Assembly (NCBI RefSeq): GCF_003991155.1
Contig: NZ_CP031293.1
Length of the DNA: 64,000 bases
Strand: one strand, 5' to 3'
Source of the DNA: Escherichia coli
Lineage (GTDB): Bacteria; Pseudomonadota; Gammaproteobacteria; Enterobacterales; Enterobacteriaceae
This document shows positions 13,100 to 15,521 of this stretch, in pieces; position 1 is the first letter of the stretch, and every line of letters begins with the position of its first letter. The position numbers were made by a program, and so were the translations under genes. The notes under the pieces were generated by a model. The model was not told where the DNA came from, ran no database searches, and saw nothing but the letters and a program-made list of their open reading frames with translations.

Positions 13100-13882
13100 C
13101 TCAGCATTTTACATTCACAAATACACGATAAAATCAGGGGGAAAACCAATATCCAGAAAAATGAGTTTCCCCTTTCTGCGCCAGAAATAACGGTGTAATC
13201 TCCCTCCTGCATTGTCGCCTTCGGGCACCCTTTGGCTTCATGGTCTGCAAGAAGCCCCTGATTTATCAGGATGACCAGCCCTTACTACCGGTACGACCTC
13301 CGCAATACCGGAACGCGAAAGCGTTTGAGGCTAAGAGTACATACACCCGAACGGCTTCATCGTCATTGCTTAACGGCAACAGTCTTCACCGGCTGAACGG
13401 CTTTTCTTTGCCGGAATTTCCCGACTGCCCCATACCCAGCTGAAAACAGCGCCCTTTACATGACGGGCTGCGGCCTGCATTGCCGTCAGGCTTTGCTGCC
13501 GCGTGACCGTCATTCTGCACCAGAAACGCAACGTTTACCCCCTGCACCAGATGAGGCGTCACTTTGGTCGCGCCAGCGAAAAAGCAAAGTGACGCCGTAC
13601 AACATACCGCCGCAAGCCGCGCCAGTTCTGGCCTGCGTCCTGTTTCCGCCGTCTGACATGCCCTTTGGGGCGCTGTCAGTCCAGAGTAAAGGAGAAAAAG
13701 ATCGATACCGAGGGGGGCACGACGCCCCGGAGATACCCCTGCTTCGTCAGGCAGTCTGTACCGCGTACAGCCTGAAACTCCCTAAACCTCAACAATCAGC
13801 CACTCCGGCGTGAAGGTATCGTTCTGGCGCAGCCAAAAAGCACACGCCGGAGACTGTTTGTTTTTTGTTGCAGGGGGTAGTT

Positions 13883-14767
13883 ATGAGCAAATTAAGCAGT
13901 GAAATGAAGGCGCTGGCGAAAAAAGCAGGCGGTAGTTTCAGAACGGTGGACTACCGTATCCATGCCACGAAGCGGTTCAGTCAGCATTTACGCGAACTGA
14001 ATATTCAGATCCAGCGGGTGGAGCAGATCAAAGTTCGCCATATCGAATGCTATATTCAGGAGCGGCTGGAGCAGGATATTGGCCTGCGCACGCTGCAAAA
14101 CGAAATGGCGGCGCTGCGGGCCGTGCTGAGGCTGGCGGGACGCCGGCAGGTGGTGGAGCATCCGCGCCTGACCAATAAGGCGCTGGGGCTGTCAGGTGCT
14201 TCGCGCAACGGCACGCGTCGCGCCATCACGCCGGAACATTATGAAAAAGTGATGGAGAACGCCCGCGCACAGGATGCGGGGCTGGCGGCAGCGGTGGAGA
14301 TCGCGCGACTGATGGGATTACGCTCGCAGGAGGCGGTACAGAGTTCACAGTCGCTGAAAACGTGGCTGAAAGCCATTTCCCGCGGCGAAACCCGGCTGAA
14401 AGTGGTGTTTGGCACCAAAGGCGGGCGTCCGCGTTACACGACGCTCCTGGACGCTGGCGCAGTCAGGAAGGCGGTGGAAAACGCATTACCGATCGCCAGA
14501 CAGCGCAATGGCAGGCTGATCGACAAGCCAGACCTTAAAACGGCGCTGGAGAGCTGGCACAAACAGGCCATTAAGGCGGGGCTGAAAGGGGAATTTTCCC
14601 CGCACTCGCTGCGTTATGCGTGGGCGCAGGACGCGATCCGCCATTATCTGGCGCAGGGATTCAGCGAAAAGGAATCGCTGGCGCTGACGGCGACGGATCT
14701 GGGTCATGGCGACGGTCGCGGCCGCTGGGTGAAACAGGTGTACGGCTACCGCTGGAAGGAGGAATAA
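13883..14767 (+). CDS. Tyrosine-recombinase-like protein (integrase domain-containing, ~294 aa)
   Basis: The start is MSKLSSEMK. C-terminal motifs are HSLRYAWAQD and LGHGDGRGRWVKQVY, which fit the H-x-x-R and terminal Tyr of the phage integrase fold. Confidence 0.65.
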   Translation: MSKLSSEMKALAKKAGGSFRTVDYRIHATKRFSQHLRELNIQIQRVEQIKVRHIECYIQERLEQDIGLRTLQNEMAALRAVLRLAGRRQVVEHPRLTNKALGLSGASRNGTRRAITPEHYEKVMENARAQDAGLAAAVEIARLMGLRSQEAVQSSQSLKTWLKAISRGETRLKVVFGTKGGRPRYTTLLDAGAVRKAVENALPIARQRNGRLIDKPDLKTALESWHKQAIKAGLKGEFSPHSLRYAWAQDAIRHYLAQGFSEKESLALTATDLGHGDGRGRWVKQVYGYRWKEE

Positions 14768-14841
14768 CGGCTTTCATGAATGGCGCAAAATAGTACGTTA
14801 CTGCGTAACGACAGCGATTTATCGTACCCTCTGTACCGGAT

Positions 14842-15521
14842 CTGGCGCAGGGGGCGAGCGGGTTTGTATTGTGAAAATATCGTTACAGCATGACGAATAA
14901 ATATCAATAGCTCAGATTTTCCTGCTGAACCAATGTAGCTCGCCGGAATATTATAGTGATTACCCGGTAATCACTCGAAACGATCCCGATTAATAGCTGG
15001 TGTTTCAATCGTTTTACCGATATTACAGGTACAGGGTCGGGAAATTTTAAAATGTAAACTCACCGAGGCATCACATTAATTCTGGCGCAGGATTATATCT
15101 GAATAATTCTCTCTGTGTTTTCCTGCATCCTGTGACATATATTGCATGGTCACAGAATGTCTCATGATTTTATAAAAAATGCTGCGACGGTTTTTGACAT
15201 CATAACCTGCTGCATATAGATTAATAATTTTCGGTGCTTCATGTTATTTTTTTGCGCTCTGTGATCGTTATCTGGTGGTGAAAATACAATCTGGTGCAGA
15301 CTGTCATGGTGCATTTCTGAATAAACTGGTTGCGCCAGAAAGGGAAAGGGCCATAAAGGTTAAGGGGCGATAAGGGTAACAGCGCCTGACCGGAAAGGGC
15401 CGAAAACCAAAGAGCCAGAAACTGGCGCAGTCCTGAATGTGTGAAGTGGCGAGACGCTGGCGCAGATAACCGATCTTCCGGGGCTGGTGCAGATTATTTC
15501 GTCTCTGTATATCTGGTGCAG
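14842..15521 (+). repeat. Iteron-like array of the 9-mer CTGG(C/T)GCAG in noncoding DNA
   Basis: Direct copies lie at 14842, 15082, 15291, 15422, 15457, 15484 and 15513. A variant CTGGTGGTG is at 15272, and an inverted CTGGCGCAA is at 15329-15337. Further copies lie at 13824 (direct) and at 13515 and 13542 (inverted). Confidence 0.7.

Follow-up and report, generated by a model that had tools for sequence, protein, structure and literature searches.

A strand-polar 9-mer array accompanies a candidate MOB_M-type relaxase gene in a tRNA-Asn island of Escherichia coli

We analysed a repeated 9-mer, D-CTGGYGCAR, that surrounds a gene for a 294-amino-acid tyrosine-recombinase-like protein (13883-14767) in a stretch of 64,000 nucleotides of Escherichia coli DNA (contig NZ_CP031293.1, assembly GCF_003991155.1), which is called the window throughout this paper. 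Here, we found that the 9-mer is enriched at this locus, conserved in homologous islands, almost strictly strand-polar and placed at fixed offsets from a conserved hairpin that precedes a gene of the MOB_M relaxase family. With moderate confidence, we interpret the 9-mer as a repeated cis element of a mobilization module, the copies of which would bind the relaxase or an accessory protein of the relaxosome. The original prediction, which was made from the window alone, had named binding sites for the adjacent recombinase-like protein as one of several candidate roles, and judged by sequence this appears to be the best single reading. We infer that the hairpin corresponds to the origin of transfer (oriT), that the neighbouring gene encodes a working relaxase and that this protein or one of its partners binds the 9-mer. 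The host would belong to a family of tRNA-inserted integrative mobilizable elements of Enterobacterales.

Results

Enrichment and structure of the 9-mer

When we counted the exact sequence CTGGYGCAG in the window, we obtained 15 matches, compared with 1.06 ± 0.92 in dinucleotide-preserving shuffles; none of 100 shuffles reached 15 copies. It can be seen from the distribution of these matches that 13 of the 15 are located between positions 13176 and 16874. For the degenerate form CTGGYGCAR, there are 14 copies within 13101-15840 (2.7 kb) versus 6 in the 59 kb outside 12501-17400, and the motif is thus about 50-fold denser near the locus than in the remainder of the window. The motif is thus denser than chance, as had been suspected. 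In pooled related loci it behaves as a strict 9-mer, the flanks of which are uninformative apart from an avoidance of C at position -1. Since the 9-mer is quasi-palindromic (CTG-GYG-CAG), its polarity resides in the central triplet.

The copies that had been placed on the plus strand at 14842, 15082, 15291, 15422, 15457, 15484, 15513 and 13824 and on the minus strand at 13515 and 13542 are all exact matches at these positions. An inverted variant (CTGGCGCAA) is also present, although at 15330-15338 and not at 15329-15337. Similarly, there is a real noncoding stretch 3' of the gene, but it comprises 1073 bp (14768-15841, up to the integrase stop codon) and not 1.2 kb. The 'variant' that had been listed at 15272 (CTGGTGGTG) carries two mismatches and is not conserved. 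Five copies were missing from the earlier list, namely those at 13176 (minus), 13617 (minus, one mismatch), 14454 (plus), 14648 (plus) and 16874 (minus). The last of these (16874-16882) has the integrase's own sense orientation, is kept in most E. coli variants examined and probably represents just L-A-Q codons.

Strand polarity and fixed offsets in related loci

For comparison with the window, we used loci of E. coli (L002-L011), loci of the type found in integrative and conjugative elements (ICE-type, L013-L017), loci of Salmonella, Citrobacter, Klebsiella and Enterobacter (L018-L024) and the best 80 of 315 confirmed loci from a scan of one genome per species (L025-L104). Strand polarity was quantified in 40 loci, each with at least four motif copies. 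Between -700 and +150 from the hairpin centre, 123 copies are on the minus strand and 1 copy is on the plus strand. Between +150 and +2100, we counted 241 plus-strand and 12 minus-strand copies, and this polarity rule is kept in 38 of the 40 loci. The minus-strand copies occupy fixed offsets from the hairpin centre (-56, -28/-29, +39 and +57, and additional ones at about -196 and -287). Most loci of the array clade have the sites at -56 and -28/-29, to which 13515 (-56) and 13542 (-29) correspond in the window. The plus-strand series extends from the 3' end of an EFASI RNA motif through the gene to a downstream cluster, and the position of its first copy before the gene (-56 to -66) is kept across genera. 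We also considered that the upstream minus-strand copies might be codons of a hidden minus-strand gene. However, the surrounding open frames are short and differ between loci, and these copies are thus noncoding. The region 5' of the gene, 780 bp with a GC content of 55-59%, is poor in open reading frames.

Inside the gene, the motif occurs at nine alignment positions, and all of these copies are on the plus strand and none on the minus strand. At L-[AV]-Q residues, the codons spell the motif in 98 of 109 cases in these related and phylogenetically non-independent loci, compared with 35% expected from the genes' own codon usage. In the array-less clades, other residues and no LAQ are found at the in-gene motif positions. 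These data indicate a selection at the DNA level that reaches into the protein sequence.

Downstream of the stop codon, the elements follow each other in a kept order: a plus-strand copy, a minus-strand copy 29-32 bp further on (in part of the clade), a purine-rich block and three to five plus-strand copies. The pair of opposed copies at a distance of 29-32 bp recurs in L025, L050, L052, L053 and L056-L058. The purine-rich block, for which no consensus hairpin was found, is always located between this pair and the dense plus-strand cluster, the copies of which are repeatedly spaced by 25-31 or 35 bp in different loci. The Escherichia loci differ by an insertion of AT-rich DNA (about 550 bp) that brings two or three additional copies, and several lineages of E. 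coli have a mutated copy at 15082. The AT-rich stretch is absent from Salmonella, Citrobacter, Klebsiella and Enterobacter, in which the arrangement is compact and measures 190 bp. The layout is common to Escherichia, Salmonella, Citrobacter, Klebsiella, Enterobacter, Serratia and Cedecea and was likewise found in Brenneria, Lonsdalea, Samsonia, Atlantibacter, Phytobacter, Tatumella and Buttiauxella.

In about 100 loci, the order and orientation of hairpin, EFASI, gene and cluster are constant, and no inversion, deletion or permutation variant was seen. The earlier suggestion that the array mediates site-specific rearrangement is not supported, given the lack of inversion or deletion variants in this sample. 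In view of the same constancy, a shufflon-like or switch-like role is likewise unsupported.

Family assignment of the 294-amino-acid protein

The protein matches the Pfam models Integrase_1 (PF12835; 1e-58) and Phage_int_SAM_2 (4e-38); it has no other domain and no arm-binding domain, and the general phage-integrase model matches it weakly. The catalytic set of the tyrosine recombinases (R, K, H-x-x-R, H/W, Y) is complete, and the residues R147, K179, H241, R244, H275 and Y287 are invariant in an alignment of nine sequences spanning 44-76% identity. When we compared the protein with WP_033567157.1 of the ICE SGI-4 (tblastn), we obtained 48.5% identity over 98% of the query. PF12835 is the signature for MpsA, the atypical relaxase of Salmonella genomic island 1 (SGI1), according to the classification paper of the Burrus laboratory (PMC10484663), and WP_033567157.1 is a profile seed of the MOB_M family, which was defined with MpsA, TcpM, MobK and four further proteins as seeds (10.64898/2026.01.13.699239). 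By these sequence comparisons, the gene is assigned to the MOB_M family and not to the ordinary integrases, and a working relaxase role of its product may be inferred from this membership. A search by sequence for matching solved structures returned none.

MOB_M relaxases were reported in a preprint to be the commonest relaxases in enterobacterial chromosomes; 96% of their genes are near an integrase gene, 44% belong to ICEs with a type G mating-pair formation system (MPF_G) and 56% to islands without mating pore (10.64898/2026.01.13.699239). The window gene, which is convergent with a P4-type integrase gene at tRNA-Asn and has distant homologues in MPF_G plasmids and SGI-4, fits this picture together with its relatives.

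A conserved hairpin upstream of the gene

The inverted repeat GGCGTCACTTTG...CAAAGTGACGCC was found 5' of the gene in all homologues. Its outer arms GCGTCACTT and AAGTGACGC are near-invariant in 63 distinct sequences, including SGI-4 and MPF_G plasmids, and the upstream alignment, which ranges from E. coli to SGI-4 and Pantoea plasmids, places them some 290-330 bp 5' of the start codon. The nine central pairs are essentially invariant in the 63 versions, and the outermost and innermost pairs covary (G-C with U-A; U-A with G-C or C-G). The inner stems are clade-specific yet still self-complementary. Folded as single-stranded DNA, the sequence 13555-13596 gave -18.1 kcal/mol with a z-score of -6.1. 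An oriT 5' of the relaxase gene has been described for SGI1 and for pIGRK, and it was located there in MOB_M elements by the method of 10.64898/2026.01.13.699239. The hairpin corresponds to the oriT of SGI1 and pIGRK and to the oriT-comprising regions of the preprint in position and character (GC-rich, inverted repeats), and by this analogy it may be regarded as the putative oriT core.

Conservation of the copies and co-occurrence with neighbouring genes

When Escherichia was compared with Salmonella, Citrobacter or Klebsiella, we found 92% identity in the three cluster copies that are shared, whereas the spacers are 32% identical and of unequal length. Such a contrast is the classical footprint that would be expected for a sequence-specific binding site. 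The motif layout tracks the clade of the recombinase-like gene across more than 15 genera, and both the conservation of the array in homologous islands and its connection to this gene are supported.

Partner genes within 3 kb were searched by tblastn in 50 array-bearing and 36 array-less loci. A Ner-like gene was found in 37 of the 50 array-bearing loci versus 9 of the 36 array-less loci, and the corresponding numbers were 31 versus 0 for hyp153 and 40 versus 5 for the P4-type integrase. Thus, 13 of the 50 array-bearing loci have no Ner-like gene within this distance, and nine loci carry such a gene without the array. In clades at 56-61% identity, only one or two related copies are present, either as a pair between EFASI and the start codon or flanking the hairpin. 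To find a variant motif that changes together with the relaxase clade, we counted 8-mers de novo in the array-less clades and made targeted scans; apart from one or two ancestral copies, located close to the hairpin or to the end of EFASI, nothing was detected. On sequence comparison, the presence of the array follows the relaxase clade.

The STAXI motif shows the opposite distribution. In an Rfam scan, it reached or exceeded the gathering score in 5 of 5 ICE-type loci (L013-L017) and in 0 of 5 motif-bearing loci. In the ICE-type loci it is located 5' and/or 3' of the gene, roughly where the island clade has its 9-mer arrays, and this suggests that one device replaced the other. STAXI is said in the Rfam/Weinberg description to have been proposed to act as single-stranded DNA. 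A search of the window with the STAXI model (RF01728) gave no match in 15250-15560 (E up to 10) or 12000-17500 (E up to 1), and we rejected the downstream array as a STAXI homologue on account of this missing Rfam match.

Organization of the module and its surroundings

The coordinates of the module are summarized in Table 1. In the clade with relaxase-like proteins 63-93% identical to that of the window, the order is isrK/C4 RNA, ash, hyp153, Ner-like gene, noncoding DNA, EFASI, relaxase-like gene, array, P4-type integrase and tRNA; in the window, too, an ash-family gene is among the genes upstream of the relaxase candidate. EFASI was found directly 5' of the gene in 10 of 10 homologue loci scanned with Rfam, ICE-type loci included. 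Salmonella, Citrobacter and Enterobacter (L018, L019, L023) share with the window the order in which isrK-like and C4-antisense-like RNAs are followed by the ash-hyp153-Ner operon. This arrangement resembles the antisense-RNA immunity cassettes of P1/P4 type and may control the induction of the module. An AlphaFold2 model of hyp153 predicts a generic four-helix bundle without any hint of DNA binding.

Around the 13824 copy, a 10-bp stem (CTCCGGCGTG / CACGCCGGAG; 13805-13852) encloses the motif, with a run rich in T between it and the ribosome-binding site. Compensating changes keep the stem paired in Salmonella as in E. coli, but its RNA fold is not significant against shuffles, so that a function as terminator or attenuator is no more than a lead. 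Two adjacent palindromes (15625-15694), located between the array and the integrase 3' end, fold as single-stranded DNA with -24.2 kcal/mol and a z-score of -9.6 and may be a bidirectional terminator or operator.

TABLE 1 Features of the mobilization module and its neighbourhood (positions in the window)
Feature	Position	Strand	Basis or remark
isrK-like and C4-antisense-like RNA genes, module head	11725..11912	+	Rfam gathering matches, 61.4 and 84.6 bits
hyp153, 153-amino-acid protein	11965..12426	+	no Pfam or PHROG match
Ner/SfsB-like winged helix-turn-helix regulator (HTH_35)	12423..12677	+	Pfam PF13693, E 3e-33; NCBIfam SfsB; PHROG transcriptional repressor
Orphan HigA-family antitoxin gene	12827..13099	+	NCBIfam TIGR02607, E 1.6e-26
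Motif copy, distal upstream	13176..13184	-	exact match; position kept in E. coli variants and E. albertii
Two motif copies	13515-13523, 13542-13550	-	exact; 56 and 29 bp 5' of hairpin centre
Inverted repeat GGCGTCACTTTG...CAAAGTGACGCC, candidate oriT core hairpin	13555..13596	.	conservation, covariation, fold
One-mismatch copy CTGGCGCGG	13617..13625	-	3' of hairpin, near the +39 copy site of relatives
EFASI RNA motif (RF02957)	13697..13825	+	99.1 bits vs gathering 51.2; model positions 1-133, full length
First plus-strand copy	13824..13832	+	starts in last two EFASI bases, 59 bp before start codon
MOB_M-type (tyrosine-recombinase-like) relaxase candidate, 294 amino acids	13883..14767	+	Pfam, SGI-4 homology
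In-gene copies	14454, 14648	+	inside the 13883-14767 gene
Three dispersed copies	14842, 15082, 15291 (14842..15299)	+	in Escherichia-specific AT-rich stretch
Inverted variant copy CTGGCGCAA	15330..15338	-	pairs with the 15291 copy across 30 bp
Purine-rich block (AAAGGG repeats; core GGGTAACAGCGCC)	15339..15421	+	core invariant, 35 distinct sequences from 42 loci
Dense cluster of four copies	15422, 15457, 15484, 15513 (15422..15521)	+	spacing 35, 27, 29 bp
Two adjacent near-perfect palindromes (TCTTCCGTGATTAACG/CGTTAATCACGGAAGA; GTTACCTATCAA...TTGATAGGTAAC)	15625..15694	.	between array and integrase 3' end
P4-type tyrosine integrase pseudogene, internal stop	15842..17104	-	RefSeq annotation of identical sequence; Pfam Arm-DNA-bind_3, Phage_int_M, Phage_integrase
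tRNA-Asn, island attachment site	17266..17341	-	ARAGORN and Rfam

The identical sequence is present in E. coli chromosomes, and the region or an 80-90% identical variant was found in 583-617 of 5,426 complete genomes. RefSeq places it between two tRNA-Asn genes beside yeeO. When we looked in the window for repeats of the tRNA-Asn 3' end as boundaries of tandem islands, the two tRNA genes alone matched. To the left of the module there are a DUF2169 fragment, an IS3 element and Rhs genes. An isrC RNA match (145 bits, 9832-9954) lies inside an IS3-family element (about 9800-11013) that interrupts the island. The cargo varies by locus and includes type VI secretion and Rhs genes, AbiE, a TIR/Thoeris-like set and others. 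In two strains of Citrobacter youngae, we found six copies of the relaxase-like gene (L028, L043, L066, L071, L073, L084), in part accompanied by the full module and in part lacking an integrase or Ner-like gene nearby, which suggests repeated acquisition or tandem accretion of such islands.

Discussion

The module consists of an oriT-type hairpin, EFASI, the MOB_M-type relaxase gene and a terminal repeat cluster that precedes the convergent P4-type integrase gene. If the 9-mers are sites for the relaxase or for an accessory protein, an oriented nucleoprotein complex of higher order might be built on the copies at oriT, and expression of the relaxase may in addition be subject to feedback through the copy at the EFASI end. 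The gene family, EFASI, STAXI and the presence of an oriT upstream of MOB_M genes have already been described. In the literature searched, we found no description of the polar 9-mer array, the hairpin offsets, the in-gene copies or the purine-rich block, and the array itself appears to be undescribed.

Several points weigh against this interpretation. The relaxase assignment follows from homology to a family in which experimental tests are limited to MpsA, TcpM and MobK. As a quasi-palindrome, the 9-mer looks more like the site of a small DNA-binding protein that acts as a dimer than like a half-site of a tyrosine recombinase. The main array is located 1-1.6 kb from the hairpin and also runs through coding sequence, which is unusual for relaxosome sites. 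The ICE-type homologues (≤56% to 61% identity), if functional, do without arrays. No other feature correlates better with the arrays than hyp153 and the P4-type integrase do. Finally, within the tRNA-Asn lineages of E. coli, 25% of the columns are variable in the motif and in its surroundings alike (Fisher p = 1). In several of these lineages the relaxase-like gene or the integrase gene is pseudogenized. Taken together, the array is under selection in the family and is probably decaying in many E. coli copies. The element in the window is probably a fossil, since its integrase gene is a pseudogene and the copies change as fast as their surroundings within E. coli.

Comparison with known systems provides likenesses and differences. 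SGI1 (oriT_SGI1, sgm-sRNA, mpsA, mpsB) also has a tyrosine-recombinase-like relaxase, the PF12835 signature of MpsA being shared with the window protein. In SGI1, too, a GC-rich oriT with inverted repeats lies 5' of the relaxase gene, an RNA element is located between the two, and the host is an integrative mobilizable island. In contrast to SGI1, the window module has no separate mpsB because the 294-amino-acid protein has its own SAM-like N-terminal domain. Moreover, the SGI1 oriT is described as a 125-bp GC-rich sequence with inverted repeats, and the part of that description accessible to us mentions no repeated polar 9-mer. ICEs of the SGI-4 type and MPF_G plasmids of Pantoea and Klebsiella encode proteins 44-51% identical to that of the window, and they share the hairpin GCGTCACTT..AAGTGACGC and EFASI directly 5' of the gene. 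However, they have STAXI on both sides of the gene and no 9-mer arrays; there are only CTGCGCG/CGCGCAG, which extends the hairpin arms, and one related copy at the EFASI end. The window element, on the other hand, lacks mating-pore genes. MobK of pIGRK is again a tyrosine-recombinase-like relaxase with the oriT 5' of its gene. This oriT contains inverted repeats, direct repeats, a short motif (AGCGA) in four copies and a G-rich tract, and MobK formed multiple shifted complexes in electrophoretic mobility shift assays. The oriT repeats and the multiple shifts thus set a precedent for binding of the 9-mers by the relaxase. The pIGRK sequences are unrelated to those of the window, pIGRK is a small plasmid, its repeats are confined to 186-456 bp as compared with 2.5 kb, and no polarity was reported.

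With plasmid iterons, the array shares the short direct repeats in noncoding DNA beside the gene of a DNA-binding enzyme. The two differ in repeat length and spacing, in the Rep gene and DnaA boxes (absent here) and in the hairpin set of opposite orientation (present here). Motifs of 8-9 bases that are oriented relative to one site and tolerated in coding sequence are known from the FtsK-orienting polar sequences (KOPS/FtsK), from Chi/RecBCD and from the TRS/TraB system at clt of Streptomyces. The window array differs from these polar guide sequences in being local (2.5 kb), and this is a resemblance only.

The polarity nevertheless raises a possible, if rather doubtful, alternative, which is the main rival: the motif may be no static binding site but a strand-polar signal with a direction of reading that starts at oriT. 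In the manner of a single-strand origin, it might label the transferred single strand for priming or for synthesis of the complementary strand; alternatively, a translocase or coupling protein might be oriented by it, as FtsK is by KOPS and TraB of Streptomyces by the TRS repeats. Such a signal would agree with the near-absolute polarity over about 2.5 kb with a single switch point beside the hairpin, with relaxase-codon copies on the same strand only and with the STAXI motifs that occupy the same positions in ICE-type relatives. However, the minus-strand copies on both sides of the hairpin at fixed offsets are reminiscent of a static complex, a clustered spacing of 25-35 bp is what cooperative binding typically shows, and we know of no translocase or primase with such a 9-mer specificity. 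More specifically, the 9-mer could constitute a strand-polar signal system of the tyrosine-recombinase-like relaxase that is read on the transferred single strand or by a translocating motor, is strong enough to be written into the relaxase codons (L-A-Q, nine positions) and has replaced the STAXI elements of the ICE-type relatives in this island family, which we consider unlikely. If true, a polar signal would provide conjugative mobilization in Gram-negative bacteria with its first described polar guide-sequence device, and it would give a handle on DNA processing by 3'-linking, recombinase-like relaxases. It is similarly improbable that the copies are operators of the Ner/SfsB-like HTH_35 repressor, which would silence the mobilization module until the operon controlled by C4/isrK is induced. 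The Ner-like gene is part of the conserved module and more frequent in array-bearing loci (37/50 versus 9/36), one copy is located between EFASI and the ribosome-binding site, and a quasi-palindromic 9-mer suits a small dimeric regulator. On the other hand, 13 array loci lack a nearby Ner-like gene, an argument that is softened by the fact that the protein could act in trans, and nine Ner-bearing loci lack the array, for instance the Brenneria clade, in which Ner is 69-72% identical. Most copies are also far from promoter-like sites, and repression requires neither strict strand polarity nor in-gene copies.

That the copies serve as arm-type sites for the neighbouring P4-type integrase, which has an Arm-DNA-bind_3 domain, appears very improbable to us. 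It is true that the downstream array is located between the relaxase and integrase genes, that the integrase co-occurs in 40 of 50 array loci and that the opposed site sets recall the P and P' arms of attP. However, this reading fails on geometry because the 162 bp that separate the tRNA from the integrase start are free of copies and because the arrays are centred on the hairpin and the relaxase gene. The minus-strand copies centre on the hairpin and not on an att site, and the arrays are at least 1.7 kb away from the tRNA core site, with the nearest noncoding copy 1.7 kb from the tRNA 3' end. In addition, the same 9-mer accompanies integrases that are only 53-58% identical to that of the window, and L012, L077, L084 and L097 keep copies without a P4-type integrase. 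The proposal of an iteron-type replication origin of a satellite-like element, which the original prediction had listed among its candidate roles for the 'iteron-like' array, is hardly tenable. Direct repeats beside an AT-rich stretch and P4-like RNA genes nearby would be in keeping with an origin, but there is no Rep initiator among the module genes (Pfam, NCBIfam, PHROGs) and no DnaA box in 14768-15840. The geometry is not that of iterons either, as the 9-mer has no flanking information and is spaced irregularly (25-35 bp in the cluster, hundreds of bp elsewhere), in contrast to tandem 17-22-mers. Furthermore, the AT-rich DNA is Escherichia-specific, and other genera have the array without it.

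The locus provides a precise, testable anatomy for one large MOB_M clade, comprising the near-invariant hairpin, the 9-mers at fixed offsets, the array of opposite orientation that extends through the gene to a terminal cluster and the purine-rich block. Islands with this module carry type VI secretion, Rhs and anti-phage cargo, and their possible mobilization would bear on the spread of those traits.

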